Shown piece by piece: positions 33,491-63,542 of a DNA stretch of 64,000 nucleotides. Below the pieces are notes generated by a model. It was not told the origin of the DNA. It ran no database searches and saw only the letters and a program-made list of their open reading frames with translations. The position numbers and the translations under genes were made by a program. Numbering within the stretch: the stretch's first letter is position 1; every line of letters begins with the position of its first letter. The DNA is from Nitrospira sp. (GTDB lineage Bacteria; Nitrospirota; Nitrospiria; Nitrospirales; Nitrospiraceae): positions 12,621 through 76,620 of the forward strand of contig JAJONL010000002.1 of the NCBI GenBank assembly GCA_021323395.1. The letters run 5' to 3'.

Positions 33491-33514
33491 CTAACTAGGG
33501 CCTTGCCTAGTTAG
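33491..33514. promoter_or_regulatory. Palindromic operator candidate, copy 1 of an 18-bp motif
   Basis: CTAACTAGG-GCCTTG-CCTAGTTAG, a perfect 9-bp inverted repeat; core CTAGGGCCTTGCCTAGTT at 33495-33512, 128 nt before the YtxH start. Confidence 0.55.
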
Positions 33515-43271: not shown

Positions 43272-45893
43272 TCACGCCAAGGCCGTCATCATCTTGCGGG
43301 TGATTCGCTGCTTCGTCGAAAAGTACTCTCTCCACGGGTCGTGCTTCAGCCGGCTGAGTCGGTCCCCGAGATTGCCAAGGGTGAACTGGTCGGATCGCAC
43401 GTCCGCCGACAACTCGTCCCACGATAATGGAACCGACACCGGGGCGCCCGGTCTGGCCCGCGTGGAGTAGGCGGCCACGGCCGTCGCGCCCTTGGCGTTG
43501 CGCAAATAATCGACATAGATTTTCCCTTTCCGTTTCTGCTTGGACATGTTCGCCAGAAAACGTTCGGGAATCATATGCTCCAGATGGTCGGCGAGCGACT
43601 TCGAGAAAGCCTTGACCTCATCCCAGGTATGGACGCGTTGCAGCGGCACCACGACATGAAGACCCTTCCCGCCGGTCGTCTTGACGAAGGACGCGAGGTT
43701 CAATTCGCTCAGCAGCGTGCGCAACAATTGCGCGCCTTCAACGACCGATGCCCATGCGACCGCAGGGTCGGGATCGAGGTCGAGAATCATGCGGTCCGGA
43801 TTGTCGAGCCGATCCCGTTTCGACCCCCATGTATGCAGCTCCAGGACGCCCATCTGCACCAGCCCCGCCAGAGCGGCGAGCGAATCGGCCACCATATAAC
43901 AAGCCGTCCCGTCATCCTCGGGAATCTCCACTCGTCCGACCGCCTCAGGAATGCGATCGTTGGCGTGCTTTTGATAGAAACATTCCTTGTCGTATCCCTC
44001 GGGACAACGGACGAGCGTCAGGGGCCGGTCCTGGACATGCGGGAGGATCCACTCACTGACGGTTTCGTAATATTGCGCCAGCGCTAATTTGGTGACGCTC
44101 TGTTCGGGAAACAAGACGCGGTCGGGATGACTGAGCGTCACGCCGCCGATGATCGCCGGCCCCTTCGGAAAGGGCACGCTAGGAACCGGGTCGCGGGGTG
44201 ATGAGTTTTTGCGCCGCGTGCGATGCGATGAGGCAGGGCGAGGCGTCTTGTCTGCGATCGGACGAGAAGCCTCCGGGGCTGGCCGTTCATGCATCACCGA
44301 CCGCGCGTCCTTGTCTTCTCGCAGACCTTGAAACGAGGCCTGCCTCAACTGGCCTTCGTGGGTCCATTCGGCAAAGGCCACCTCGGCAACCAATGCCGGG
44401 CGCAGCCAATGCACCCCGCGAGCTTCGCTGCCGCGAGGCGGATTCATGAAGGGAGCCGTCGGCTGCTCCAGTTTTTTGAGGCGCGCATGAAGTTCCTTGA
44501 GCGAGCGCTCAGAAAAGCCCGTGCCGGTGCGTCCTGCATATTGGAGACGACCCTGCGCATCGTAGACACCCAGCAGCAAGGCACCGAAGGATGATCGCGA
44601 ACCCGACGGGTCGGTAAAGCCGCCGATGACGAATTCCTGCCGACGACTGCATTTGACCTTGACCCAGTTGCGGTTCCGTCCGGCCACATAAGCGGCATCC
44701 GCACGTTTGGCGATCAGTCCCTCCATTCCGCTGCGGCAGGCTTCGGCAAAGGCGACGTCGCCCTGTCCGGTTATATGATCGCTATATCGGAGCAAGGACG
44801 AGGGCGGGCTCTTCTTGAACAGGGCGGCCAGGCATTGTTTGCGCTCAATCAGTGGAGCAGGCCGCAAATCGTACCCGTCGACGTAGAGCAGGTCGAACAG
44901 GAAATAGACCAAGTTGCTGTCTGAATGGGCATCGAATGCATTCTGCAGCGTTTGGAAACTTATCCGTCCATCCGGAAGCAGCGCCACCACTTCGCCATCG
45001 AACCAAGCCTGCTCTACGGGCAGGCCGGCCGCGGCGGAGGCGATGCGCGGTAATTTTGCCGTCCACTCATTGCCGTTTCTGGTCCACAGGGTGGCTTGGC
45101 TGTTGTTCACCCGGCACAAAATTCGATAACCGTCATACTTGAGTTCATGCACCCATTCCTCGCCTTCGGGGGAAGCCGTCACCAGGGTCGCCAGTTGCGG
45201 GGCCACCCATTGTTCCTGGGGAGCTTTGCGGGCTCCGGGCATCGGGGCATTCTTAAGCAGCCGCCGGGCTGGAGCTGGCCGGCTGGGTTTGTCGGACGCC
45301 CTATTCGATTCCCACACCGCAGGCTGACCCGCGGCAATTTGCTCGATGCTCTTGCCGCTCGCCACGCTCGCGGTGAGCCGCTGCGTCACATCGCTCTGTT
45401 TTCCGCTGCGCGCTTCCTCGTCTTGTTCCTTGATCAAGAGCCAGTTTTCTTTCCCCGTTTCCTGTCGGCCGCCCATGCGGACCAGATTCCAGATGCCGTG
45501 TAATTTTTCTCCCTGCAGGGTGAATTTCAGTCGTCCCCGGCGGTAACTCGAACCGGGATCGCCGATGGGCTCCCAGTAGCCCCGATCCCACAGCAGCACC
45601 GTGCCGCCGCCGTACTGCTCGGCGGGAATGATGCCCTCGAAGCCGGCGTAATCGAGGGGATGGTCTTCGACATGCACGGCCAGGCGCTTTTGTTTCGGGT
45701 CCAGGCTGGGTCCCTTAGGGACCGCCCAGCTCTTCAAGGTGCCATCCAATTCCAAACGAAAGTCGTAATGGAGGCGACTCGCGGCATGTTTTTGAATGAC
45801 GAATTGCAGCCGTCCCGTATGGGGGACCGATTTCCCGCGCGGCTCGGGCGTCTTATTGAAATTTCGCTTTTTCCAATATTGCCGAAGACCCAT
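43272..45893 (-). CDS. ligD: Multifunctional NHEJ DNA ligase D (phosphoesterase-ligase-polymerase)
   Basis: PE: FVIQKHAASRLHYDFRLE. Ligase: ELKYDGYR, EGLIAKR, WVKVK. Pol: DLDP, KTTGGKGLHV, VDYLRN. Confidence 0.97.
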   Translation of the reverse strand: MGLRQYWKKRNFNKTPEPRGKSVPHTGRLQFVIQKHAASRLHYDFRLELDGTLKSWAVPKGPSLDPKQKRLAVHVEDHPLDYAGFEGIIPAEQYGGGTVLLWDRGYWEPIGDPGSSYRRGRLKFTLQGEKLHGIWNLVRMGGRQETGKENWLLIKEQDEEARSGKQSDVTQRLTASVASGKSIEQIAAGQPAVWESNRASDKPSRPAPARRLLKNAPMPGARKAPQEQWVAPQLATLVTASPEGEEWVHELKYDGYRILCRVNNSQATLWTRNGNEWTAKLPRIASAAAGLPVEQAWFDGEVVALLPDGRISFQTLQNAFDAHSDSNLVYFLFDLLYVDGYDLRPAPLIERKQCLAALFKKSPPSSLLRYSDHITGQGDVAFAEACRSGMEGLIAKRADAAYVAGRNRNWVKVKCSRRQEFVIGGFTDPSGSRSSFGALLLGVYDAQGRLQYAGRTGTGFSERSLKELHARLKKLEQPTAPFMNPPRGSEARGVHWLRPALVAEVAFAEWTHEGQLRQASFQGLREDKDARSVMHERPAPEASRPIADKTPRPASSHRTRRKNSSPRDPVPSVPFPKGPAIIGGVTLSHPDRVLFPEQSVTKLALAQYYETVSEWILPHVQDRPLTLVRCPEGYDKECFYQKHANDRIPEAVGRVEIPEDDGTACYMVADSLAALAGLVQMGVLELHTWGSKRDRLDNPDRMILDLDPDPAVAWASVVEGAQLLRTLLSELNLASFVKTTGGKGLHVVVPLQRVHTWDEVKAFSKSLADHLEHMIPERFLANMSKQKRKGKIYVDYLRNAKGATAVAAYSTRARPGAPVSVPLSWDELSADVRSDQFTLGNLGDRLSRLKHDPWREYFSTKQRITRKMMTALA

Positions 45894-45928
45894 GCGGCTT
45901 CTCCGCCCTGAGGACAATGCCTCTCAGG

Positions 45929-47282: not shown

Positions 47283-47520
47283 CACTCTCGTCTCCTTCGA
47301 ATGCATCCCGCGGCTTCCAACCGCCGACAGGCCTGTCGCGCAGCATAGGTACTGTACGCGGATGCGGATATGAGGGGGAGCTAGTAGGTACCCTAGGCGT
47401 CTGTCATCCTTTGGAGGACGCCTGTCCAGGAGGTTTGCCTAGTAGAAGGGACGCTCAATTTGAGGATAGATGAGCGTAAATCGAGGACGCATGGCACCGC
47501 CTCCGCAGAGCCATCGGCAC

Positions 47521-48039
47521 ATGAAGCGTTCTGTGTTGCACAGCGTGAGTCTTCTCTCCGTGGTCGGCCTCGTGGCATTGGCCGTGGGCCTTCTCTATTC
47601 GAAGGGCACCGCAGATTTGGCCGCTCAGGACCGTCAACCCATTCCCTTCAGCCACGAATTCCATGCCGGGCGGCTCGGTCTGGATTGTCTCTATTGTCAT
47701 CGCGCGGCGCATCAATCTCCAACCGCCGGCGTGCCCAGCCTACAACTTTGCATGGGATGCCATCGGAATATGGACGCGAATCAACCGGGCATCCAGACTC
47801 TCCTCGATCATTGGACGCGTCGACAGCCTGTCGCGTGGGTGCGTCTGCAGCGCCTGCCGGACTTTGTGTACTTCACGCACGAGCGTCACCTCGCCAATCA
47901 GGTGCAGTGCCTGGACTGCCACGGACAGGTCGAGTCCACACCTTACACGCCGCGCGCCGCGACGTACGAGATGGGCTGGTGCTTGGCCTGTCATCAGCAA
48001 CGGGGCGCGTCTCGCGATTGCATCACGTGCCACAAATAA
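47521..48039 (+). CDS. actA: Membrane-anchored pentaheme cytochrome c (ActA-like)
   Basis: Five CxxCH motifs (CLYCH, CMGCH, CLDCH, CLACH, CITCH); QPIPFSHEFH; RLPDFVYFTHERH; MGWC; N-terminal TM. Confidence 0.88.
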   Translation: MKRSVLHSVSLLSVVGLVALAVGLLYSKGTADLAAQDRQPIPFSHEFHAGRLGLDCLYCHRAAHQSPTAGVPSLQLCMGCHRNMDANQPGIQTLLDHWTRRQPVAWVRLQRLPDFVYFTHERHLANQVQCLDCHGQVESTPYTPRAATYEMGWCLACHQQRGASRDCITCHK

Positions 48040-48109
48040 GGCTGCTCATCCGAAACGACGAGCGGATCGTGACGCGGCCAGGACCTTCTGCTCGTAGTGT
48101 GACGAGTCG

Positions 48110-50299
48110 ATGAAACTGAAACGGCGAACCTTCATCAAAGCGTTGGGACTCGCGGCAGCCGGTTCATTCCTGCCCGGCTGCGAGCGCGAAGTGCACCACC
48201 TCGTGCCGTATGTCTTACCCGACGACGAAATCGTGCCGGGTGTCGCCGACTGGTATGCCTCGACCTGTCGTGAATGTCAGGCCGGATGTGGGGTTGTGGT
48301 TCGCGTGATGGAGGGACGGGCGAAGAAAATCGAAGGCAATTCGGAGCATCCTCTCAATCAAGGCAAGCTCTGCGCCAAGGGGCAGGCGGCCTTGCAGGGC
48401 CTCTACAATCCGGACCGCATCCGGGAGCCATTGCGACGGCCGGAACGAGAGGGTCGCCGCCCCTTCGAGCCGCTGGCATGGGAAGAGGCTCTGACCCAGC
48501 TGACCGAACGACTCCGCAAGGTGCAGGGCCCGGTTATCATGATTAGCCGCCCCCTGTCCGGAACCTTGGCCGAGTTGGTCTCGACCTTCATGCGCGCGAT
48601 CGACGGCGAGCTGTATTTCTACGAACCCGGCGCAGACCTCCCGCTTCGCGCCGCCTCCCGTGCAGCCTTCGGCATGGACGCCTGGCCCCACATCGACTTG
48701 GCCGGAAGCGATTATGTGCTTTCCTTCGGTGCTCCGTTTCTCGAAGGGTGGCTGTCTCCCGTCTCCCTCGGCATCGCCTACGGACAGATGCGCCAGGGTC
48801 GACCCCTGACCCGGGGGCGGTTCGTCCAGGTCGAACCTCGGCTCTCACTGACCGGCGCCAGCGCCGATCGGTGGATCCCTATCCGCCCGGGCACCGCCGG
48901 CCTCCTCGCCATGGGCATCGGTCAGATCCTTCTGGCGGAGAGACCATCGGCATTGCCTGAAACCCAGCGCAGGACGTACGAGCGGATCTACGGAGACATC
49001 CCGCTTGATCGGATTGCCGCCCTCACCGACATCCCGCGCGAGGAGCTGGTCCGCACGGCGCGGGAATTCGGCTCAGCCGGCGCTCCCCTCGCGATCGGCG
49101 GCGGCGCCGCTTGCGCCCATACCAACGCGACCGAATCCCTGGCGGCGATCCAGGGGCTCAACGTCGTCACAGGCAGAATCGGCAGGCCCGGAGGCCTGCG
49201 CTTTTATGAACCGGCCCTGTTTTCCGGAACGCAGAGCATCCCCTGGCTCACGGAGCGCTCCCTGGGAGAACTGGCGCAGCGGGCCCTGTCCGTCGTGCTC
49301 CTGTACGACAGCAACCCCTTGCATACGGCGCCGCCCTCGATCCCGCTTCGGCGCCTGTTCGAACAGGCGGATTTCGTCGCCAGCTTCAGTCCCTTCATGG
49401 ACGACTCTACCTCCGCGGCCGACCTGATTCTTCCCGACCATTCCCCGCTCGAGTCCTGGGGCGATCATGTTCAACCGACCTCCTTTCCGACCGCCATCGT
49501 GAGCCTGAGCCAGCCGGTGGTCACACCGCTCTATGATACGCGGGCAGTAGGAGATACGTTTCTGTCGCTGGCCCATCGACTCGGGCTGAGCGGATTTCCC
49601 AGAGAGACTTTCCACGCGTTCCTCCAAGATCGCTGGCGGCGTTTGTTGAGTGAGCAAGCCGGGACTCACGGCGAAGAGGCGTTCGCGGCGGCCTGGGCTC
49701 ATCACGTTCAGCAGGGCGGCTGGTGGGGTCGGCCGGGACGCGAATTGACCGTGACGGCTGCCCCTCCTCCACTTCCTCATGTCCCCGCGACCTTCGACGG
49801 AGACGACCAGAATTGGCCGCTGTATTTCCATCCTTACCCATCCCCGTCGCTCGGACAGGGTCGAGGCGCCAATTTGCCCTGGCTTCAGGAACTACCCGAT
49901 GCCTTGACGTCCGCCATGTGGGGAACCTGGGCGGAAATCAATCCACATACCGCGCAGGCGCATGGAATCAGGCAGGGAGATATCGTGCGCATTGTTTCGC
50001 GCTACGGCAGCATCGAAGTCCCGGCCCTGTACTATCCTGCAATCAGGCCGGACGTCATTGCCGTGCCGATGGGACAGGGTCATCAGGAGTACGGCCGTTA
50101 TGCGAGCCGGCGTGGCGTCAATCCACAGTCCATCCTCGCTCCCCTCTTCGATCACCGCACCGGAGTTCTCGCGAGCGCCGCCACGAGGGTACGGATAGAG
50201 GCAACCGGCAGGCCGGGACGACCGGTCCTGCTGGAGCCGTCCGCCCTGGATCCCGGTCACGAATTACTGACCATCGGAAAGGCTCGCTCGAGCCCGTGA
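48110..50299 (+). CDS. actB1: Molybdopterin-oxidoreductase-like subunit (ActB1/QrcB-like), Tat lipoprotein
   Basis: KRRTFIK Tat motif plus LPGC lipobox; CRECQAGC-x27-C; KIEGNSEHP; SFGAPFLEGW; ADLILP..LESWGD. Confidence 0.85.
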   Translation: MKLKRRTFIKALGLAAAGSFLPGCEREVHHLVPYVLPDDEIVPGVADWYASTCRECQAGCGVVVRVMEGRAKKIEGNSEHPLNQGKLCAKGQAALQGLYNPDRIREPLRRPEREGRRPFEPLAWEEALTQLTERLRKVQGPVIMISRPLSGTLAELVSTFMRAIDGELYFYEPGADLPLRAASRAAFGMDAWPHIDLAGSDYVLSFGAPFLEGWLSPVSLGIAYGQMRQGRPLTRGRFVQVEPRLSLTGASADRWIPIRPGTAGLLAMGIGQILLAERPSALPETQRRTYERIYGDIPLDRIAALTDIPREELVRTAREFGSAGAPLAIGGGAACAHTNATESLAAIQGLNVVTGRIGRPGGLRFYEPALFSGTQSIPWLTERSLGELAQRALSVVLLYDSNPLHTAPPSIPLRRLFEQADFVASFSPFMDDSTSAADLILPDHSPLESWGDHVQPTSFPTAIVSLSQPVVTPLYDTRAVGDTFLSLAHRLGLSGFPRETFHAFLQDRWRRLLSEQAGTHGEEAFAAAWAHHVQQGGWWGRPGRELTVTAAPPPLPHVPATFDGDDQNWPLYFHPYPSPSLGQGRGANLPWLQELPDALTSAMWGTWAEINPHTAQAHGIRQGDIVRIVSRYGSIEVPALYYPAIRPDVIAVPMGQGHQEYGRYASRRGVNPQSILAPLFDHRTGVLASAATRVRIEATGRPGRPVLLEPSALDPGHELLTIGKARSSP

Positions 50300-50372
50300 G
50301 GATGAGGAAGGGGAGCGATGAAGTCGAGGGAATGACAGTCGGTTATGAGTGCAAACGTATGGGAGGGAGCAC

Positions 50373-51092
50373 ATGAGCGAGCACAAGGAGGAGCCTCAGG
50401 ACGGCCGTCCCTACAAATGGGAGATGGTCATCGATCTCGATCGATGCACCGGTTGCGAGGCCTGCGTGGTGGCCTGTCATGCGGAAAACAATATTCGTAT
50501 TTCCGGCGAGCAAGAAGCCGCGGACGGCCGGGCCATCAATTGGATCCGCATCGAGCGCTATTGGGAAGGCGAGTATCCCAATGTCAAGGCGAGGTTCATG
50601 CCCGTGCTCTGCCAGCATTGCGGGAACGCCCCATGCGAGCCGGTCTGTCCGGTCTATGCCTCCTACCACACGCCGGATGGCTTGAACGCGCAGGTGTACA
50701 ACCGCTGCATCGGAGTGCGGTACTGCGGCAACAATTGCCCCTACACGGTCAGGCAATTCAACTGGTTCGACCCGCATTGGGACGCGCCCTTGGCGGAGCA
50801 ACTGAACCCGGACGTGACCGTCCGTCAAAACGGCATCATGGAAAAGTGCACCTTCTGTGTGCAGCGCATCAGACAGGGAAAGGAGCAGGCGGAGAAGGAG
50901 GGCCGGCGCGTACGCGACGGGGAAGTCGTACCGGCCTGCGTGCAATCCTGTCCGACTTCCGCGCTCCTGTTCGGCGATCGGAACGACCCTACCAGCCGAG
51001 TCTCGCAATCAGCCGCCAGTGACCGGGGATTTCACCTCCTGGAGGAGTTAGGCACTCATCCGGCCATTACCTATTTGAAGCGGTTACCATGA
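50373..51092 (+). CDS. actB2: Four-cluster ferredoxin-like subunit (ActB2; three 4Fe-4S plus one 3Fe-4S pattern)
   Basis: CTGCEACVVAC, CQHCGNAPCEPVC, CIGVRYCGNNC (one Cys replaced, as in ACIII), MEKCTFC, ACVQSCP. Confidence 0.9.
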   Translation: MSEHKEEPQDGRPYKWEMVIDLDRCTGCEACVVACHAENNIRISGEQEAADGRAINWIRIERYWEGEYPNVKARFMPVLCQHCGNAPCEPVCPVYASYHTPDGLNAQVYNRCIGVRYCGNNCPYTVRQFNWFDPHWDAPLAEQLNPDVTVRQNGIMEKCTFCVQRIRQGKEQAEKEGRRVRDGEVVPACVQSCPTSALLFGDRNDPTSRVSQSAASDRGFHLLEELGTHPAITYLKRLP

Positions 51093-52423
51093 CGACACCG
51101 GCACCGGCAGAGGAGCACCAGATTCCGAAAATCAATCGGGACCTCCTGGCCCCGCTCGTGACGACCCATTGGAGCTACTTTCTCCTGGTGGGAGCGTTGG
51201 CCTGTCTCGTGGCCGCCGGCGCCGGGGCCTGGTCCTATCAGTTCCGCACCGGCATCGGCCGGACCAATCTTCATCCTCCGGTGTTCTGGGGCGTGTACAT
51301 CGCGTCGTTTATTTTCTGGGTCGGCGCGAGCCATTCGGGCACGTTCATTTCAGGGGTGCTTCGGCTCACCAAGGCGGAGTGGCGACGGCCGATCACCAGG
51401 ATTGCCGAACTGATGACGTCTATTTCCTTGATGATCGCGACCCTGTTCGTCTTTTATCACCTGGGGCGGGTCTGGCGATGGTACTACCTGATTCCCTATC
51501 CCAATCAGCGTGAGATCTGGCCGAATTTCCGTTCCCCCCTCATGTGGGATGCGATGGCGGTGTTCACTTATGCGACCGCCAGCACCATCTATCTGTACCT
51601 GCCGCTCATACCCGACTTCGCCTTGATGCGCGACCGGATCGAGGGCTGGAGAAAGCCGCTGTATCGCGCGCTTTCTCTGGGATGGCAGGGCACGCAGCAG
51701 CAATGGCAGGTCTTGGAGACCGCCATGCGGATCATCACCCCCTTGATCGTCATGGTGATGGTGTCGGTCCATTCGATCGTGGGATGGGATTTCGGGGTCT
51801 CGCTGGTTCCGGCATGGCATTCGACGATTTTCGCTCCCTATTTCGTGGTGGGTGCGGTGCACTCCGGAGTCGGGCTGGTGGTCATCGGGATGTACGTACT
51901 TCGAAAAATCTATCACTTGGAAGACTATATCGGACGGGAGCATTTCGACAAAATGGGAAAGCTCCTCCTCCTCACGACCCTCGGCCTGGCCTATCTGTAT
52001 TTTGCCGAACTGCTCACCATTTGGTACGGAAATATCCCCGACCATCGGTGGGTGGTCGACGCTCTCCTGACCGGTGCGTTCGCCGGGCCGTTCTGGTTCA
52101 TGGTGGGCTGCATCTATGTCATTCCCCTGATCACGCTCACCCTCCCGGCCTTTCGACATTGGCCCTTGGGCGTCATGTTCATCGGGCTGCTGATCAACAT
52201 CGGAATGTACATCGAACGCGTGTTGCTCATCGTCCCGCCGCTGGCCTATCCCCGGTTGCCCTTCAATTGGGACAGCTACGCCCCCTCCTGGGTCGAGATG
52301 ACCATCGTCGTCGGGTCGCTGGCTCTCGCGGTGCTGCTTTATGTCCTGGCCGTCAAATTCGTGCCCATCATTTCCATATGGGAGGAGAAGGAGGGATTGG
52401 TTCATGGCGGACGTCAGCAATGA
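51089..52423 (+). CDS. actC: NrfD/PsrC-family quinol-interacting membrane subunit (ActC)
   Basis: FIFWVGASHSG, WRRPITRIAE, HLGRVW, PNFRSPLMWD, VSVHSIV, WHSTIFAPYFV. Confidence 0.92.
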   Translation: MTTPAPAEEHQIPKINRDLLAPLVTTHWSYFLLVGALACLVAAGAGAWSYQFRTGIGRTNLHPPVFWGVYIASFIFWVGASHSGTFISGVLRLTKAEWRRPITRIAELMTSISLMIATLFVFYHLGRVWRWYYLIPYPNQREIWPNFRSPLMWDAMAVFTYATASTIYLYLPLIPDFALMRDRIEGWRKPLYRALSLGWQGTQQQWQVLETAMRIITPLIVMVMVSVHSIVGWDFGVSLVPAWHSTIFAPYFVVGAVHSGVGLVVIGMYVLRKIYHLEDYIGREHFDKMGKLLLLTTLGLAYLYFAELLTIWYGNIPDHRWVVDALLTGAFAGPFWFMVGCIYVIPLITLTLPAFRHWPLGVMFIGLLINIGMYIERVLLIVPPLAYPRLPFNWDSYAPSWVEMTIVVGSLALAVLLYVLAVKFVPIISIWEEKEGLVHGGRQQ

Positions 52424-53444
52424 CGACGCGACGCTTGTCGCACTCTTCGCACTCTCGACTCCCCTGAAGCCGGTCCTCGAACAGCTCCAGCGAGCCGGCG
52501 TGCCCATGGGGAGTATCGAGGTCATCTCGCCGTTACCGTTACAGGGGATCGAGATGAGCCGCCCTCCCCGCATGCCGCTCTATGGGCTGACGATACTCGG
52601 CGGGCTCGCGGGCATCGGGCTCGGCGTATTTTTTACGGTGGGCACGGCCCTCTTTTATCCGCTGATGACGGGGGGAAAACCGATCGTCGCGCCGCCCGTG
52701 GTGGGCATCATCGCATTTGAGAACATGATGCTGTTGGCCATCGTCACGACGTTCGTTACCCTGGTCCTTCGACTCAGGGTGACAGGGCGGCCGCCGCCTC
52801 GCGACCCGCGGATCGACGACGGAGCAGTGGCCCTGTCCATCGACATGGACGCCAGGGCTGCGCAGTCGGCGGTCGTTCAGACTCTGCTCAACGAAGCCGG
52901 TGCGTTGAAGATCACGTCGCTCTTGAAAGAACGAGCCCGACCGCCGGCACCCGTCGCGGCGAAGCAGAGCGAGACTGGGATCTGGTTGTGGCTTGGCTGT
53001 GCCCTTGCCACCCTCTGTTCCCTCAACGCCTGTTCTCAAGATATGGAAACTCAAGCCTCGTATCAATCCCAAGAAGCGCCTCGCAGGCATTCGCCACCCG
53101 GCAGCATCCCCCTGCAGAGCCGAGCCGCCCACCCCGCCTCTCCAGTCATGCCGGCCGACCAACGAGTGGCGGGGCAACGGGTATTTCAGATTAACTGCGT
53201 GCCTTGTCATGGTCCAAGCGGCGGCGGGGATGGGCCGGTCGCAGGATATTTACGGGACATGCCGAAGAATTTGCAGGCGTCGCATGTCCAACGACGGTCG
53301 GCAGAAGACCTCTATGCCGTGGTGACGGAAGGGAAAGATTCGATGCCTCCATTCAGAGGGGAGCTCTCGGCCGCGGAACGATGGGCGGTCGTCGCCTATG
53401 TCAAAACCCTGCGGGCGCCGGACAACCCTACAGGTCAGCCGTAA
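52404..53444 (+). CDS. actD/E: ActD (DUF3341)-ActE (monoheme cytochrome c) fusion
   Basis: N-terminal two-TM DUF3341-like part (GGKP..FENMML..DPRIDDG); C-terminal LNACSQDMETQ, CVPCH and SMPPF in one reading frame. Confidence 0.82.
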   Translation: MADVSNDDATLVALFALSTPLKPVLEQLQRAGVPMGSIEVISPLPLQGIEMSRPPRMPLYGLTILGGLAGIGLGVFFTVGTALFYPLMTGGKPIVAPPVVGIIAFENMMLLAIVTTFVTLVLRLRVTGRPPPRDPRIDDGAVALSIDMDARAAQSAVVQTLLNEAGALKITSLLKERARPPAPVAAKQSETGIWLWLGCALATLCSLNACSQDMETQASYQSQEAPRRHSPPGSIPLQSRAAHPASPVMPADQRVAGQRVFQINCVPCHGPSGGGDGPVAGYLRDMPKNLQASHVQRRSAEDLYAVVTEGKDSMPPFRGELSAAERWAVVAYVKTLRAPDNPTGQP

Positions 53445-53462
53445 CGCCGAACCACCGATGGG

Positions 53463-54689
53463 GTGACCGTGCCTGCACTCGGACAAGATCTTGACGCGAT
53501 CAGCTTCCCGCTGATCGGAAACAGCCTGGTCATCGGACTATTCAGCCTGCTGCACATTGCGATTGCCGGGCTGACAGTGGGCTTCATGGTGCTGGCGCCG
53601 CTGTTCGAAACAGCAGACCGGATCAATCCTTATTATGCGGACTTTTCCCGCAGCATGACGCGATTCACGATCGTGACCTTCAGCATCAGCACCGTGCTGG
53701 CGGTCTTTATGGTCGAATTGTCCATCGGGCTCTTTCCCCTAACCACCATGTGGGTATGGAACCAGTTTCGATGGCCCATCCTGACGGCCGTCGCCTCATT
53801 CATCCTGATGCTCGCCATGCTGTACCCCTACTACCACTATTGGGATTATTTCAGGCGAGAGAGCCGGCAACTTCACATCCTCATGGGATTTCTTGCCGCC
53901 TTCTTCCTGTTGGTCTGGGTCGTCATCCTCGACGGCATGGGATCGGCCATGCTCACGCCGAGAACGAACGGAGGCCCCTGGGAACGGCTCCTCAATCCAA
54001 CCTGGATACCGTTGGTCCTCCATCGATTCATCGGCAACCTCGTGCTGGCCGGCTTTGTGATAGCCGGCTATGCGGGGTGGCGCCTCAGAAAACAGGCGGG
54101 GCGGCCGGATGAAGCGTACTATGCGCATGTCCTGCAAACGGGGCTCTGGATCGGCCTGCTGTCGCTGATCCTCCAACCGGCGACGGGCCTGCTCTATGCG
54201 TGGCGGATCGAAGACACCGTGCCGCTTGCGTATGCTCAACTGACGCAGGGAGCCTACCGAGGGTATCTCTATGCCCAATTTTTCCTGATCGCAGGGCTCT
54301 TTCTGGGCGGCCTGGCCATGCTGCGGCTCACAATGCCCGCGCGCCCGCCCTTGACGGGAGGACTCATGTCCGTTGCGGTCGGCATCGCGTTGTCGATCGT
54401 CGTCACGGCCGCCTCGCCGAGCCTGCGTCGACCTCTGACGTTTGTGTTGGCCGGATTGGTCATCTGGTGTGTCTATCACTCACGCGCCTGCTTCAGGGAC
54501 GGCTCCCCCGCCCAGCTCAATCGGCCGATCGTTCGGCGCACGGCCATCATGATGGGCATCGTATCTTTACTGACGTATTTGACGATGGGTACCATCCGGG
54601 AAACCGCCCGGCGGCCTGATACCGTGCGCGGCATCATCTCCCTTCAGGACGAACTGCTGCAACCGGCGGCCGACCGGCGAGAGCCGTAA
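53463..54689 (+). CDS. Cytochrome bd subunit I (CydA)-like membrane protein, copy 1
   Basis: LHIAIAG (His), SAMLTP, LNPTW..LHRFIGN, MGTIRETARRP; many TMs; no Q-loop seen. Confidence 0.75.
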   Translation: MTVPALGQDLDAISFPLIGNSLVIGLFSLLHIAIAGLTVGFMVLAPLFETADRINPYYADFSRSMTRFTIVTFSISTVLAVFMVELSIGLFPLTTMWVWNQFRWPILTAVASFILMLAMLYPYYHYWDYFRRESRQLHILMGFLAAFFLLVWVVILDGMGSAMLTPRTNGGPWERLLNPTWIPLVLHRFIGNLVLAGFVIAGYAGWRLRKQAGRPDEAYYAHVLQTGLWIGLLSLILQPATGLLYAWRIEDTVPLAYAQLTQGAYRGYLYAQFFLIAGLFLGGLAMLRLTMPARPPLTGGLMSVAVGIALSIVVTAASPSLRRPLTFVLAGLVIWCVYHSRACFRDGSPAQLNRPIVRRTAIMMGIVSLLTYLTMGTIRETARRPDTVRGIISLQDELLQPAADRREP

Positions 54690-54731
54690 CCAAGTTGTCG
54701 CGGCACGGCGCGGCATTCGAATGGAACGACG

Positions 54732-56054
54732 ATGACTTTGGAAGCCCTCGACATTCCGATGCACTACGGCAAACTCGCCATCGGCGTGGTGGCATTGACC
54801 CATGCACTCTTTGCGACGTTCATTGTCGGATCCTCTCTCATCGGGGTGGCGACGGAAACGGTCGGGTGGATGACGCGCAAAACACGGTACGACCGGCTGG
54901 CTCGCACGATCGCCTTCACCTTGATCTTCACCACGGCGGCCGTGTCGTTTTTGGGGGTCACGCTCATCTTTGCGCTCAATATTTTTTGGCCGCGCTTTTG
55001 GTCCACGCTGTTCCGCATCATGTTCTGGCCTCTCTTGCTCGAAGCCGCGATGTTCCTGGGAGAAGCCATTTTTGCCTATGCCTGGTTTTATTCCTGGGAC
55101 TGGGCGGCAACCAGTCCTGGGCGCAAACGGCTGCACCTCCTCTTCGGATGGCTCGCGGCGGGATGCGCGCTGACGGCGATGTTCGTCATCGACATGGTCG
55201 CATCCTATATGCTGACGCCCCGTCCCCCGGAACTGGTGTGGGATCGGCTGTTCAATCCCACGATGATCCACTTGCACCTGCATCGTTGGTTCGGGAATTT
55301 AACCTGGACGGGATTCGGTCTCTCAGCCCTCTGCGCCGTGGGGTTCCTGCGCGCCAAGACAGCGGAGGACCGGCGACATTATGATTGGGCAGGGGGCTAT
55401 TGCTTCACCATCGGTTTTGGCGCGCTGCTGCTCATGCCCGTAATCGGTTATGAATATCTCCTGCGGATTCGTTATGAACAGCCGCAGGCCTTCCACACGC
55501 TCATGCTCGGAGGCCGCTCGTGGCTCTTCGATCTCGTGGCGCTTTTCTACAGCCTGCTGATCGTCCTCGGCACCGTCTACATTTTACGCGGACTGACACG
55601 TCCCCCGCGCAACGGCTCATCGCGGATCGTGCTGCCGGCCTCCTTGGCAGTCGTGATCTTGGCCGGCATCCTGTTTTCCATCCCCTATCACCTTCAGCAT
55701 ATTCCCGGCCTGCATTCCCTGACAGACCGCGCCATTCTTCCCCTCGGCAAGATGCAGCCCAACAAATACTTCGCCATGGCATTCCTCGTCATGTTCGGCC
55801 TCATGAACTGGCTGTACTTCTTCCGGTCGTTTCACGACCGGCTGCCCTGGTGGGACACCAAGGCGGAGAGCGGCAAGGATCGGCTGTCCCCTCTGTTGCT
55901 CGTCGCCTTGTCGCTCTGCGCGATGCTCATGATGCTGACGATGGGGTGGGCCAGGGAAACGGCGCGCGCCTACAACGGCTATTTGATTTATGGCGTGATG
56001 AGCTTCGAACAGGAAGCCGCCCTCTATCAGCCGGCGCCGACTGAGCAGAAATGA
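54732..56054 (+). CDS. Cytochrome bd subunit I (CydA)-like membrane protein, copy 2
   Basis: THALFA (His), LLEAAMFLGE, SYMLTP, FNPT..LHRWFGN, MGWARETAR; many TMs. Confidence 0.8.
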   Translation: MTLEALDIPMHYGKLAIGVVALTHALFATFIVGSSLIGVATETVGWMTRKTRYDRLARTIAFTLIFTTAAVSFLGVTLIFALNIFWPRFWSTLFRIMFWPLLLEAAMFLGEAIFAYAWFYSWDWAATSPGRKRLHLLFGWLAAGCALTAMFVIDMVASYMLTPRPPELVWDRLFNPTMIHLHLHRWFGNLTWTGFGLSALCAVGFLRAKTAEDRRHYDWAGGYCFTIGFGALLLMPVIGYEYLLRIRYEQPQAFHTLMLGGRSWLFDLVALFYSLLIVLGTVYILRGLTRPPRNGSSRIVLPASLAVVILAGILFSIPYHLQHIPGLHSLTDRAILPLGKMQPNKYFAMAFLVMFGLMNWLYFFRSFHDRLPWWDTKAESGKDRLSPLLLVALSLCAMLMMLTMGWARETARAYNGYLIYGVMSFEQEAALYQPAPTEQK

Positions 56055-56213: not shown

Positions 56214-57614
56214 ATGGCTCAACGGCCTGACCATTCGACGGTGGAAGGGTTCCAACACACCGTCGCACAGACCTGGCGACGGGTCAGCACGAACTTCTGG
56301 TTCCTTCCGACGGTTCTCACCTTGGCGGCGCTCGTGATCGCCCCGACGTTGGTGCAACTGGACGAGCGGTTGCAGGCGACCGGTCGATCCCCGGACTGGC
56401 TGAACTGGATCTATGGAGGAGGTCTGTCGGGGGCGCGCCGATTGCTCTCCGCCATCGCGACGGCGATGATGGCCATCGCCACGGTCATGTTTTCGAGCCA
56501 AACGACTGCCCTCACCTTCATCGGCCAGGAATACGGCTCGTGGCTGCTGCGAAATTTTCTTGGGGACGCGCGCAACCAACTCGCATTCGGCACCTACATC
56601 TCCACGTTCGTCTATGCGCTGATGGTGTTGCGAACGATCCACAAGGAACCGGATGGCGCTCCGGTTCCGCATCTTGCGCTGTCATTCGCTATTTTTCTCG
56701 CGATGGCGGGCTTGGGCGTGCTGATCTACTCCATGTACCACACGTCGAGATTCCTTCAATCCTCTACCATCATCAACTATGCCGCGAAGGACCTGACGGA
56801 CACGATCCGACGACTCACCACCCCGTCCGGCGGCCAGACATCACCGCCGGCGGAATGGTTTCCTCCTGACTGCACCGGCCTGCCGGTGCCGGCTCCGTCC
56901 GACGGGTACGTTCAATATGTGAAGGAGCGCCGGCTCATCACGCTGTGCCGGCAGAGCCGTGGCCGTATCATTCTGAACCGGCAAGCCGGAGATTTCGTCA
57001 TGGCAGGTGCGCCGCTCGCGGTCTTCTTCGCTCAGCCGGCCCCCGCCGATTCTCTCCTGGCGCAGATCGCGGGCACCATCGTGCTCGGGCCGCAGCCCGA
57101 CATCGAGCAGGACCTTCGATACGCGTTCAATCAACTCGTCCAAATCGCGCTCCGCGCCGCGTCTCCGGACCGCAACGATGTCCTGACGGCGAACATGTGC
57201 GTCGATCGCATGGGAGCGGCGTTGTGTCTGCTCGCGCAGCGCGACCCGGCTCAGGAAGTACGGTGCGATGACGCAGGCGCCCCGCGGGTCTTAGCCCGAC
57301 GCATCGGTTTCCCCGAAGCGGTGGACTGTTGCGTGAGCCCGCTCCGCGATTCGCGCGAGCCGAGCGGCCCGCTGCTGCTCCACATCCTGGAGGTCCTCGG
57401 TGTCATCGGAGGTTGTGTGCGGCGGGAAGAGGATCGTCCGGTCTTGCGCAGGGAAGCTGAGTTCCTCGCCGAAACGGCCGCCGCGCTGGCTCCGACCGAG
57501 TCGGCTCGCGAGCGCATTGTCCAGAGGTATGAGGATGTGTGCCGGGCGCTGGGATGCTCGCCGCGCAACCTCGCGGCGCCCCAATCGAGCGGGGGTCATG
57601 CGGCCGCGCTCTGA
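56214..57614 (+). CDS. DUF2254-family membrane protein
   Basis: FWFLPT, GARRLLSAIATAM, LLRNF, FGTYISTFVYAL, VPAPSDGYVQ, QLVQIALRAASP..ND..TA. Confidence 0.85.
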   Translation: MAQRPDHSTVEGFQHTVAQTWRRVSTNFWFLPTVLTLAALVIAPTLVQLDERLQATGRSPDWLNWIYGGGLSGARRLLSAIATAMMAIATVMFSSQTTALTFIGQEYGSWLLRNFLGDARNQLAFGTYISTFVYALMVLRTIHKEPDGAPVPHLALSFAIFLAMAGLGVLIYSMYHTSRFLQSSTIINYAAKDLTDTIRRLTTPSGGQTSPPAEWFPPDCTGLPVPAPSDGYVQYVKERRLITLCRQSRGRIILNRQAGDFVMAGAPLAVFFAQPAPADSLLAQIAGTIVLGPQPDIEQDLRYAFNQLVQIALRAASPDRNDVLTANMCVDRMGAALCLLAQRDPAQEVRCDDAGAPRVLARRIGFPEAVDCCVSPLRDSREPSGPLLLHILEVLGVIGGCVRREEDRPVLRREAEFLAETAAALAPTESARERIVQRYEDVCRALGCSPRNLAAPQSSGGHAAAL

Positions 57615-58403: not shown

Positions 58404-60452
58404 TCAGCGGGGTTCGGGGGCCGGTCTGGTCTTCCTGTACAGGCGCAGCACCTCTGCGACACTCCAGGCTTGGGCGATACAGCCGCGGGGATGGTACGGA
58501 GGTTCGGCGTCGAAGATCTCGCTCACCGTGCCGATGCCGTCTTCCAGCAGATGGGACCGGAAGCCCTCCAACATCAGGCGAGCCTTGGCCGGGTCCTTGT
58601 ACACCTTGAGCCAGGCATCGATGAAGGGTCCGATCAGCCAGGCCCAGACCGTTCCTTGATGGTAAGCGGCGTCTCTGGCCCGAAGATCCCCGAAGTACAT
58701 CGGCTTGTAGTCGCGATGGTCCCTGGAGAGGCTCCGGAGACCGACCGGCGTGAGTAATTTTTCCGCCACCGCATCCACGACTGCGCGCCACCGCGCTTCT
58801 TCGAGGATGGGGTGCGGAAGGGCTACGGCCATAATTTGATTCGGGCGAAAGCTGCCATCATCGCCCCGCTCACCGTCGATGACATCGAACAGATACCCGC
58901 CGTCCGGCTGCCAGAACCGCTCGTTGAACGAATGCCGGGCGCGCCTCGCCATCTCCTCCCAGGGATCCGGCTGTTCGCCGGCCATCTCCCCCCAGTGCGT
59001 CATGCAGCGGAGGGCGTTATACCAGAGGGCTTGGATTTCCACCGGTTTGCCGCGCCGAGGCGTGACGACCCATCCATCCACCTTCGCGTCCATCCAGGTG
59101 AGCTGATACCCTTCGGCGCCCGCGCGCAAGAGGCCATCGGCCGCATCCACACCGATGCCGAAATGGGTACCCTTCACATGGTGGTCGATGACGGATTTCA
59201 ACGTAGGCCAGAGCGCCATCACCGTCTCGCTGTCGCCGGTGACCCGCTGATATCGATCCAAGGCGTGAAAATACCAGAGTGTCGCATCCACCGTATGGTA
59301 CAGCCCCTTGCGCTGGCCTTCGGGAAACAGATTGGGGAGTAATCCATCCTTGATGTAGTTGGCGAAGGTGCGCAGGATCGACCGCGCTTCCGGATAGCGG
59401 CCGGTACAGAGGGTGAGACCTTCGAGACTGATCATGGTATCGCGACCCCAATCGGTGAACCAGTGGTAGCCGGCGATGACCGTACGCGCTTCATCACCCG
59501 ACGCTCGCGCCAGCGCCTGCTCCTCCAGGCGAGAGCCCGGATAGACGATGAACTGATCGGCCGCCAGCGTCAGCCATCCTTCGATGTCCTCTCCTCCCCG
59601 ATCTTGCAGGTGGGACAATAATTTGTTCAATCGCTGCGCTTCCGCCTCAAAGATCGCCTCGGGATTGAACTCGAGGAGTTCCCAGGACTCCGTGCTGGCG
59701 ACGAAGGCCATGGGCCGCTCCGCAGTCAGATCGACGCTGAAATACCCCGGACTCGCGAGATGCTCGATATGTTCAGAGCCTCGATCACGATCCACTCGGT
59801 AAGAGACAGCGGGGCTCATCACGGCCTCTGCGACGAATCGGCCGGCGTGGGGCCGCAGGCACATCTTGAGCGACGGGGCTCCTTCACCGAGATGCATCTC
59901 GTACCGCCCCTCGAGCACCGTAAGCGGGAAAGGAGGCTGTCTGGCCTCATGCAGGGGCGCATCCAGCATTCGAAAGGTCACGAACGGGCGGAGATGCAGC
60001 CGGACCGGATCACCTTCGAGCAATCGATACTCCACGTAGACCGAATTGTGGCCGTACGGCATGATGACCCGCTTTTCAAGGCGCCGTCCATTGAACAGGC
60101 AATGCCAGACCGGTGTTTGCCATTCGCGGGTAAAGCCGTCGAGCACGCGGGGAAGATCGCTCTGCAGGCGTCCGTCTTCAAATTCCACCCCGCTCAATGT
60201 GAAGGACTCCCCTTCGACAAAGACCTCCTCATCCAACCGCGGAATCATCACCGTCCGTCCCCAGGGTGACGGGAGATCGGGAACGAATATGCCGTGGTAC
60301 CGGCGAGTCGGCGCGCCGAGCAATGTCCCCGAGGCATAGCCGCCGAGACCGTTGGTCACCAGCCATTCTCTGGAAAGCAGATCATGGCTGTCTCGAAGAC
60401 GCTCACGGGGCGCCGAAAGAATCATATTCACGGTTTGCAATGTGGCCACCAC
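58404..60452 (-). CDS. Amylo-alpha-1,6-glucosidase (glycogen debranching enzyme, GDE_N + GDE_C)
   Basis: EWLVTNGLGGYASGT, IAGYHWFTDWGRDTMISLEGL, LTWMDAK, RPNQIMA, YHQGTVWAWL, EIFDAEPP, QAWSVAE. Confidence 0.93.
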   Translation of the reverse strand: MVATLQTVNMILSAPRERLRDSHDLLSREWLVTNGLGGYASGTLLGAPTRRYHGIFVPDLPSPWGRTVMIPRLDEEVFVEGESFTLSGVEFEDGRLQSDLPRVLDGFTREWQTPVWHCLFNGRRLEKRVIMPYGHNSVYVEYRLLEGDPVRLHLRPFVTFRMLDAPLHEARQPPFPLTVLEGRYEMHLGEGAPSLKMCLRPHAGRFVAEAVMSPAVSYRVDRDRGSEHIEHLASPGYFSVDLTAERPMAFVASTESWELLEFNPEAIFEAEAQRLNKLLSHLQDRGGEDIEGWLTLAADQFIVYPGSRLEEQALARASGDEARTVIAGYHWFTDWGRDTMISLEGLTLCTGRYPEARSILRTFANYIKDGLLPNLFPEGQRKGLYHTVDATLWYFHALDRYQRVTGDSETVMALWPTLKSVIDHHVKGTHFGIGVDAADGLLRAGAEGYQLTWMDAKVDGWVVTPRRGKPVEIQALWYNALRCMTHWGEMAGEQPDPWEEMARRARHSFNERFWQPDGGYLFDVIDGERGDDGSFRPNQIMAVALPHPILEEARWRAVVDAVAEKLLTPVGLRSLSRDHRDYKPMYFGDLRARDAAYHQGTVWAWLIGPFIDAWLKVYKDPAKARLMLEGFRSHLLEDGIGTVSEIFDAEPPYHPRGCIAQAWSVAEVLRLYRKTRPAPEPR

Positions 60453-60483
60453 CGCTCCTGCGTTGTCCGTTGTGTCTGTCGCT

Positions 60484-62403
<1,920 letters not shown>

Positions 62404-62405
62404 GA

Positions 62406-63542
62406 TCAATTTCCTTTGTTGGACAGGACCGACGGCAGGATACGTTCGCGCAGGAAACTGAGAACCGCCGCCTCTTCAGGCGGGAGGTGCCGCAACGTCC
62501 CGGGGGATTCCTGCCGCCTGGTCCGCTGGAGACTCTCCATCAAAGTTCCGTCCAAGTAGGCCTGCACAATCTCCGGATGGATGTAACACTTGCGGCAGAC
62601 GGCCTTCGTATTTCCCAATTGCTGGGCCACGACGCCGATCGCCGCGGCCACATTGCGTTTGGCCTTGCTGAAGGACTCGCACTGGCCTTCGTATTCCTTC
62701 AACGCGCGCGCCGCCAGCACCGTGCCGGCCCAGGTGCGGAAATCCTTCGCCGTGAAATCCTGGCCCGCGATGCGCTGCAGATATCCATTGACGTCGCTCG
62801 ACGTGATGGACCGGCGCGCTCCCTCCTCGTCGAGGTACTGAAAGAGTTCATACCCCGGAAGGTCTTGGCTCTGTTTGACGATGCGGGCCAAGCGGCGGTC
62901 GGTAATGTCCACATTATGCCGAATCCCGCTTTTGCCTTGGAACTGGAATCGCAACGTCGCGCCCTTCACTTTCACATGACGATCCCGCAACGTCGTCAGC
63001 CCGAAGGACTCGTTCGTGCGCGCATATTCTTCATTGCCGATACGGATCAACGTGGCTTCAAGGAGTCGCACCACGGTGGCGAGAATTTTTTCTCGGGGCA
63101 GGCCGGAACGTCTCAAGTCAGCGTTCACGCGCCTGCGTATGCGCGGCAACAGGCGGCCGAAGCTGAGGAGGCGGTCGTATTTGGTCTCGTTCCTGTGGAG
63201 ATTCCAGCGAGGATGATAGCGGTACTGTTTGCGGCCCCTGGCATCACGACCGGTCGCCTGCAGGTGTCCCTGGGGATCAGGACAAATCCAGATGTCGGTC
63301 CAGGCCGGTGGGATGACGAGTGAGCGAATTCTTTTCAGGACAACCTGCTCTCGGATGACGGCGCCGTTGGGTCGAATGTAAGAGGCTTTTTTCCCTTGCC
63401 CCTTGCGGGCGATACCCGGTGTGAGATCCAACACATAACGCAGGCCGGCGGCCTTGGCCGATCTCGCGGAATCCTCCGGTGATCGAGGCGAAAGGGTTTT
63501 AATCGTCGTACGGACGGCGGCAGATTTCATCGGTCGATTCAT
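62406..63542 (-). CDS. Bacterial DNA topoisomerase IB
   Basis: IPPAWTDIWIC, GRDARGRKQYRYH, RIGNEEY, FQGKSG, AKDFRTW, NTKAVCRKCY (catalytic Tyr). Confidence 0.93.
   Translation of the reverse strand: MNRPMKSAAVRTTIKTLSPRSPEDSARSAKAAGLRYVLDLTPGIARKGQGKKASYIRPNGAVIREQVVLKRIRSLVIPPAWTDIWICPDPQGHLQATGRDARGRKQYRYHPRWNLHRNETKYDRLLSFGRLLPRIRRRVNADLRRSGLPREKILATVVRLLEATLIRIGNEEYARTNESFGLTTLRDRHVKVKGATLRFQFQGKSGIRHNVDITDRRLARIVKQSQDLPGYELFQYLDEEGARRSITSSDVNGYLQRIAGQDFTAKDFRTWAGTVLAARALKEYEGQCESFSKAKRNVAAAIGVVAQQLGNTKAVCRKCYIHPEIVQAYLDGTLMESLQRTRRQESPGTLRHLPPEEAAVLSFLRERILPSVLSNKGN

Follow-up and report, generated by a model that had tools for sequence, protein, structure and literature searches.

This analysis concerns a 64,000-nucleotide stretch of DNA from Nitrospira sp. 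(contig JAJONL010000002.1), referred to here as the window, and within it a cluster of seven genes at 47521-56054 predicted to code for an alternative complex III (ACIII) and two CydA-like proteins of the cytochrome bd type. All seven genes are on the + strand and tightly spaced, as a preliminary description of the locus had reported, and domain, motif, and structure matches bear out its listing of a pentaheme ActA, ActB1, an ActB2 with the ACIII-type [3Fe-4S] motif, ActC, a fused ActD-ActE, and two CydA-like proteins. The genes are as follows.

47521..48039, + strand: actA, with five CXXCH motifs, in a frame starting at 47401
48110..50299, + strand: actB1, with three molybdopterin-oxidoreductase domains (PF04879, PF00384, PF01568)
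50349..51092, + strand: actB2, an iron-sulfur subunit of the four-cluster ferredoxin type with 15 Cys
51089..52423, + strand: actC, a membrane subunit of the NrfD family (PF03916 at 87.7 bits) expected to interact with quinol
52404..53444, + strand: actD-actE fusion, with PF11821 (80 bits) and PF13442 (58 bits) in one open reading frame (ORF)
53463..54689, + strand: cydA' (CydA-like 1, 'b' type, OR-N5b-like), PF01654 at 43.9 bits
54732..56054, + strand: cydA (CydA-like 2 or CydA2, 'a' type, OR-N5a-like), PF01654 at 67.7 bits

Both CydA-like proteins pass the PF01654 cut-off of 26.2 bits. The intergenic distances along the cluster are, in order, 70, 49, -4, -20, 18, and 42 nt, and a consensus scan within it found no convincing terminator, only weak intragenic hairpins. 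We consider it likely that the seven genes form a single-copy operon, actA-actB1-actB2-actC-actDE-cydA'-cydA, coding for an ACIII that lacks ActF and ActG together with a bd-like oxidase of the OR-N5 CydAA' type. Folding of the spacer between CydA2 and the DUF2254 gene downstream is no better than that of shuffled controls (z = 0.56), and downstream of CydA2 no ORF of 20 aa or more that might code for a small CydX-like protein was found on the + strand. The GC content of the cluster (0.60 to 0.64) does not differ from that of the rest of the window, and there is thus no compositional sign of recent transfer. A 217-aa ORF with a TTG start (47460-48113) overlaps actA and was rejected as spurious, being in another frame, Arg-rich, and without a family match; it could mislead automatic annotation.

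The Act genes are, by sequence, true ACIII orthologues and not Qrc, Psr, or Nrf genes, because every Act subunit scores best against chains of solved ACIII structures. ActA, whose best matches are the ActA chains of Chloroflexus (8k9e_A, 119 bits) and Rhodothermus (6f0k_A, 117 bits), is on the same grounds a membrane-anchored pentaheme cytochrome c. ActB2 matches the C-terminal Fe-S domain of Rhodothermus ActB (6f0k_B residues 792-1025) at 266 bits, with ArrB at 113 and PsrB at 103 bits. Its motif CIGVRYCGNNCP, of the CxxVxxCxxxCP type, lines up column by column with CIGTRYCSNNCP in Rhodothermus marinus ActB, and since the second Cys is missing a [3Fe-4S] site is expected here; ActB2 is predicted to carry three [4Fe-4S] clusters and one [3Fe-4S] cluster. 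ActC scores 294 (Rhodothermus), 276, 266, and 263 bits against the four solved ActC chains and 23 to 46 bits against the four solved ActF chains, with no PsrC match at E <= 0.01 in the search of solved structures. Among the NCBIfam models, DsrP gives 85 bits and QrcD 43 bits against a cut-off of 570. A grouping of ActC with Qrc, Psr, or Nrf proteins, which the preliminary description had raised as a concern, was therefore not seen.

The fused ORF contains a single heme motif, CVPCH. Its cytochrome c domain matches ActE (6f0k_E) at 37 bits, and its ActD part matches 6lod_D at 22 bits. The two parts are joined by a hydrophobic linker, an extra transmembrane segment terminating in a lipobox-like LNAC, and the fusion would be topologically sensible, in that the former ActE signal peptide would be a third helix carrying the heme domain to the periplasm. 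The fusion is one continuous match in 11 of the 14 loci from the genome collection and the frames are split in the other 3.

The large subunit ActB1 has an FS0 four-Cys motif (CxxCxxxC-x27-C, residues 53-88) and an RRTF Tat motif, both invariant among 13 orthologues, and in none of the four solved ACIII structures does the ActB chain retain the FS0 cysteines. A Tat signal with a complete FS0 motif is also found in ArrA and PsrA, and ArrA is the top PDB sequence match of ActB1 (157 bits), as would fit an active molybdoenzyme and a complex acting on a periplasmic substrate instead of merely relaying electrons from quinol. We give that reading very little credence. The Mo-ligand Cys of ArrA and PsrA corresponds to a Pro or a gap in ActB1, the segment is not conserved across orthologues, and among the large subunits ActB1 shows the lowest conservation (52-61% identity, where ActB2 at the same loci has 83-89%); a catalytic role is thus unlikely. 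Over its full length, moreover, ActB1 resembles the noncatalytic QrcB and ActB.

The resemblance to Qrc bears on the direction of electron flow. The top NCBIfam models are QrcB for ActB1 (288 bits, cut-off 440) and QrcC for ActB2 (245 bits, cut-off 400), and nitrite oxidizers require uphill electron flow to quinone. Together with the retained FS0 motif, these points speak for a reverse, Qrc-like module in which the Act part is a cytochrome c:menaquinone reductase serving reverse electron flow and the CydA pair scavenges O2 or NO or acts as a redox valve. We regard this as improbable, however, as no Qrc equivalog cut-off is reached, the heme count of ActA is five and its matches are ActA chains, ActC is much closer to solved ActC than to the QrcD model, and the locus codes for ActD and ActE, neither of which is known from Qrc. 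The fixed pairing with an oxidase-like module also favors forward flow, and the homologous proteins were not detected in Nitrospira marina on nitrite, when reverse flow is required.

The two CydA-like proteins differ in their conserved residues. Alignment of CydA2 with Geobacillus CydA (5doq_A) over helices 1 to 4 places equivalents of His19, Glu99, and Glu107, and overall CydA2 retains equivalents of His19, Glu99, Glu107, His186, and Glu445; in an alignment of 25 family members, His24, Glu104, Glu111, His184, Met258, Glu409, and Arg412 are invariant. In the CydA-like 1 family alignment, His31, His187, Glu380, and Arg383 are invariant and the proton-channel Glu99/Glu107 pair is absent. The His19 equivalent is kept in both paralogues, as His31 in CydA-like 1 and His24 in CydA2.

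AlphaFold (AF2) models of the two proteins have ten long helices each, with pLDDT (predicted local distance difference test) values of 83.5 for CydA-like 1 and 76 for CydA2. The top 10 Foldseek matches of the CydA-like 1 model are to chains of cytochrome bd subunit I, with TM 0.50-0.68, those of the CydA2 model are all CydA chains, and for both models CydB chains rank lower than CydA chains. About 13 residues link helices 6 and 7 in the CydA2 model, where canonical CydA has its Q-loop, and in CydA-like 1 the connection is likewise short, in both the alignment and the model. As neither protein has a Q-loop or a heme c motif (CXXCH), the pair should be unable to oxidize quinol itself and would depend on the ACIII module; its need for an external electron donor speaks for the preliminary reading.

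These features fit the published OR-N 'a' and 'b' subfamilies: adjacent genes, no quinol site, ten helices, and glutamates only in the 'a' protein, the last two being part of the OR-N5a/b definition (bioRxiv 10.1101/2021.01.16.426971). OR-N1 and OR-N2, by comparison, have 14 transmembrane helices. The assignment of the pair to the OR-N5 clade is by analogy, taken from the statement that the CydAA' found downstream of the Nitrospirales ACIII is OR-N5 (PMC12342949).

The assembly (3.5 Mb in 234 contigs, 99.68% complete) contains one NrfD-family gene (PF03916), which is actC, and one ActD gene. It follows that there is no actF anywhere in the assembly and that this is the single ACIII locus in the genome. 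An actF elsewhere, a possibility entertained in the preliminary description, is thus not seen, and the proposal there that the locus is a condition-specific second copy does not hold. The absence of actF, cydB, and heme-copper oxidase genes at the locus itself was correctly noted. We file the locus as an ACIII variant and not as a canonical ACIII, because PF03916 finds ActC alone and variants without ActF have already been published; variants lacking both ActF and ActG are reported from other phyla (PMC12342949, citing Refojo 2013).

A canonical cydAB is present once, on contig C142. The only match to the heme-copper superfamily (PF00115) is at C176:47-1177, and since this is a quinol-dependent NO reductase (qNOR; 326 bits to 3AYF in a PDB sequence search, with no NCBIfam family assigned), there is no heme-copper O2 reductase in the assembly. 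The qNOR gene is truncated by the start of the contig and contains an exact 15-aa tandem duplication (IFVLRQTSDEASWTS twice) that may be an assembly artefact or real. Four other bd-like genes, larger than the pair in the window, form two pairs, on C164 (3667-10542) and C56 (44559-50750); their frames of about 590 to 690 aa are upper bounds, taken stop to stop. The members of each of these pairs are about 5 kb apart, they are OR-N1/N2-like as judged by size, and a cytochrome b gene (PF00033) sits inside the pair on C164.

The gene order is strongly conserved. The full order actA-B1-B2-C-DE-cydA'-cydA is present in 14 of 14 genome loci having enough upstream DNA and in 7 metagenome loci (21 complete loci in total), and three shorter contigs retain the portion from actC/actDE to cydA. 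All 21 matches in the genome collection are from Nitrospirales-type metagenome-assembled genomes (MAGs), including one Manganitrophaceae contig (L021), whose CydA1 and CydA2 orthologues have 51% and 57% identity; one of the 21 is labelled Nitrosospira and is probably a mislabelled bin. Among public loci, the nearest is in an uncultured Nitrospira MAG, with 94% CydA2 identity. Across 301 evenly sampled Nitrospirota genomes, the four Nitrospiraceae with an ActC orthologue all have a CydA2 orthologue on the same strand, about 2.3 kb downstream, and a fifth genome has a CydA2 fragment at a contig end. The CydA-like genes are thus conserved beside the act genes, as the earlier reading implied. In 34 Nitrospirota genomes outside the Nitrospiraceae there is an ActC match and no CydA2 orthologue; most of these matches have 40-48% identity, and the few near 25% are probably other NrfD-family proteins.

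In two congeners the flanking genes are the same and all seven genes of the cluster are missing. In one (G198, C2:30000-39000) the order is LigD-Slp-outer membrane protein (OMP)-DUF2254-DUF72-glycogen debranching enzyme, and in the other (G243, C32:144000-151000) it is LigD-Slp-OMP-DUF72 fragment-glycogen debranching enzyme. These empty sites indicate that the seven genes are gained or lost as one unit; the block is inherited whole and probably also lost whole. At the G198 empty site the intergenic DNA is too diverged to align with the window junctions, and insertion breakpoints were not found. The gene next to the cluster behaves differently.

56214..57614, + strand: DUF2254 membrane protein (PF10011 at 290 bits), a variable neighbor outside the conserved cluster

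This gene adjoins the cluster in the window and in one other locus (L009) only, is absent in five others (L008, L010, L024, L025, and L026), and is present without the cluster in G198. Its independent presence or absence at the same spot indicates that the site is a variable hotspot. Upstream, on the - strand, is a full-length LigD with phosphoesterase, ligase, and primase-polymerase domains (43272-45917), and downstream, also on the - strand, are a glycogen debranching enzyme and an alpha-amylase-family gene (58404-62409); both flanks are syntenic in related Nitrospira genomes. The term "stress island" used in the preliminary description applies only loosely to these surroundings, which comprise LigD, Slp, OMP, DUF2254, DUF72, and the glycogen debranching enzyme.

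The strict co-inheritance and co-loss of the block invites the idea, put forward in the preliminary description and implicit in the "TO_3 complex" of Candidatus Manganitrophus (see below), of an obligate supercomplex in which the 10-helix CydA-like pair occupies the position of the missing ActF and ActG and docks to ActC and ActD, making one quinol oxidase particle. ActD contacts ActF in solved ACIII structures, yet here ActF is absent genome-wide and ActD is retained and fused to ActE. A Flavobacterium ACIII-aa3 supercomplex is also known (PMC8552683). We nonetheless hold this arrangement to be doubtful: both the replacement of ActF by the CydA pair and a physical supercomplex are read from gene position alone, ACIII variants without ActF and ActG are reported elsewhere, and the non-Nitrospiraceae genomes described above have ActC matches (some of them probably to other NrfD-family proteins) without a CydA2 orthologue.

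Two elements are conserved upstream of actA.

47381..47396, + strand: CTAG-N8-CTAG palindrome CTAGTAGGTACCCTAG, 125 nt upstream of actA, a candidate operator
47427..47444, + strand: second conserved block CAGGAGGnnTnCCTAGT, with an invariant core in a six-locus alignment

The palindrome sits within the block GAGCTAGnnGGTnCCCTAG, which is invariant across six otherwise diverged actA upstream regions. Pairs of CTAG with a spacing of 8 are strongly over-represented, with 19 occurrences genome-wide where each of the other spacings from 0 to 36 gives 1 to 7, and the window has two matches where 0.10 are expected; the consensus of the 16-bp palindrome is CTAGG-N6-CCTAG. The other 18 sites include those at 33495-33510 in the window, at 1345, 13007, 16098, and 17111 on C83, and at 689 on C142, and the genes near such sites code for a hemerythrin, a HAD phosphatase, a GT4 glycosyltransferase, an isochorismatase, DUF5752, and a Tll0287-like protein. 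CTAG-N8-CTAG is the probable operator of a regulator, and the seven genes are probably under this dedicated control and not used in ordinary nitrite-oxidizing growth. The pattern lends modest support to condition-specific control and none to a second copy.

The site at 33495 is the so-called stress palindrome. Its full 18-mer has no match upstream of actA within 3 mismatches, the CTAG-N8-CTAG architecture alone being common to the two. The 9-mer TTGCCTAGT of the second block also occurs in the palindrome at 33495 and is not enriched genome-wide. The half-site TTGCCYAGT was rejected as a regulon marker, since base composition predicts roughly 45 occurrences in the genome and 27 are present.

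It is conceivable, though we think it unlikely, that the locus codes for one obligate ActF-less ACIII-CydAA' particle, with the bd-like subunits on the ActF side of ActC/ActD, that a CTAGG-N6-CCTAG-binding regulator switches on within a regulon for stress or dormancy and not during nitrite oxidation. A single ACIII-CydAA' particle, if true, would be a new quinol oxidase architecture.

Returning to the ActF/ActG-less ACIII with an OR-N5-type oxidase, we infer that the likeliest function of the operon is a branch from quinol to O2. Menaquinol would be oxidized at ActC and the electrons would travel along the [3Fe-4S]/[4Fe-4S] chain of ActB2, to which the FS0 cluster of ActB1 may add a side branch. 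From the Fe-S chain they would reach the five ActA hemes and then the membrane-tethered monoheme ActE domain. From ActE they would presumably enter the 'a' type CydA at its heme site; this protein has the His19/His186/Glu445 ligand equivalents and the Glu99/Glu107 proton-channel pair. The partner of this subunit would be the 'b' type CydA' instead of CydB, and the last step would be the reduction of O2.

Several points weigh against this interpretation. The eight N. marina homologues (NMARINA_v1_2637-2644) have zero spectral counts at both O2 levels (PMC8115632), and ActE is not needed to transfer electrons to aa3 in Flavobacterium (PMC8552683). No OR-N enzyme has been characterized in the literature, and O2 reduction by these proteins is an assumption (PMC10839748, PMC12342949). 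The CydA residue equivalences are drawn from two alignments, one made in MAFFT with a single canonical CydA and one by phmmer. Finally, the Qrc-type top NCBIfam models of ActB1 and ActB2, although below cut-off, leave room for the reverse, quinone-reducing direction.

In Nitrospira, Nitrospina, and Manganitrophus, important nitrifiers and metal oxidizers, the OR-N bd-like oxidases are considered to be the principal terminal oxidases. The ACIII plus OR-N5 operon is the clearest case in which an OR-N electron donor can be read from gene order, making it a good target for biochemistry; we found no structural or biochemical study of an ACIII-CydAA' complex in the literature searched. Beyond the published genomics, the present analysis adds the FS0 motif of ActB1, explicit empty-site evidence, and the CTAG-N8-CTAG element conserved upstream of actA, through which the operon may be linked to a larger regulon.

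The locus shares with the canonical ACIII of Rhodothermus marinus (6F0K), Flavobacterium johnsoniae (6BTM), Roseiflexus (6LOD), and Chloroflexus (8K9E) homologous ActA, ActB Fe-S domain, ActC, ActD, and ActE and the same [3Fe-4S] motif. It differs in having no ActF or ActG, in the splitting of ActB in two with the FS0 motif kept, in the fusion of ActD to ActE, and in its partner, a bd-like pair in place of aa3, caa3, or auracyanin. QrcABCD, the menaquinone reductase of sulfate reducers, likewise has its molybdopterin-like and Fe-S subunits as separate proteins. The locus described here differs from this system in its five-heme ActA-like cytochrome (QrcA is hexaheme), its ActD and ActE, and an ActC far closer to other ActC proteins than to the QrcD model.

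With canonical CydAB and archaeal CydAA' (qOR4a/b), the window pair has in common the CydA fold, ligands of the His19/His186/Glu445 type, and Glu99/Glu107 in one subunit, and in archaeal CydAA' a CydA paralogue likewise replaces CydB. In contrast to canonical cytochrome bd, the pair has 10 helices, no CydX-like ORF that we could find, and no Q-loop, hence no quinol site. CydA pairs of similar length tied to a quinol-oxidizing module are also found in four distant metagenome loci (L056-L059), in which the two CydA-like genes are about 2 kb apart and have about 33% identity to the window pair. The only annotated one (L056:6734-11251) codes in order for a CydA-like protein, a Rieske protein, cytochrome b, and a second CydA-like protein (compare TO_4 of Ca. 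Manganitrophus), and is preceded by an ATP-binding cassette (ABC) transporter and a Usp-domain protein. Such CydA pairs are thus also wired to a different quinol-oxidizing module, Rieske/cytochrome b where the window has ACIII, although at this low CydA identity.

The arrangement itself is already known, a case that the preliminary description had named as one that would lower the novelty. TO_3 of Ca. Manganitrophus noduliformans combines ACIII components with two "bd-like clade V" proteins, is proposed to carry electrons from the quinone pool to O2, and was reported to be moderately expressed (bioRxiv 10.1101/2021.11.15.468770), in contrast to the undetected N. marina homologues; its host belongs to a different order of Nitrospirota. 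An actABCDE cluster with a split ActB and without ActF or ActG is described in 47 Nitrospirales genomes, almost all with the OR-N5 CydAA' genes directly downstream (ISME J 2025; PMC12342949), and the window locus is this locus, with the same gene content, order, split ActB, missing ActF and ActG, and taxon. N. marina has the same eight genes (PMC8115632), and the only distinction is that actD and actE are annotated separately there and form one reading frame in the window.

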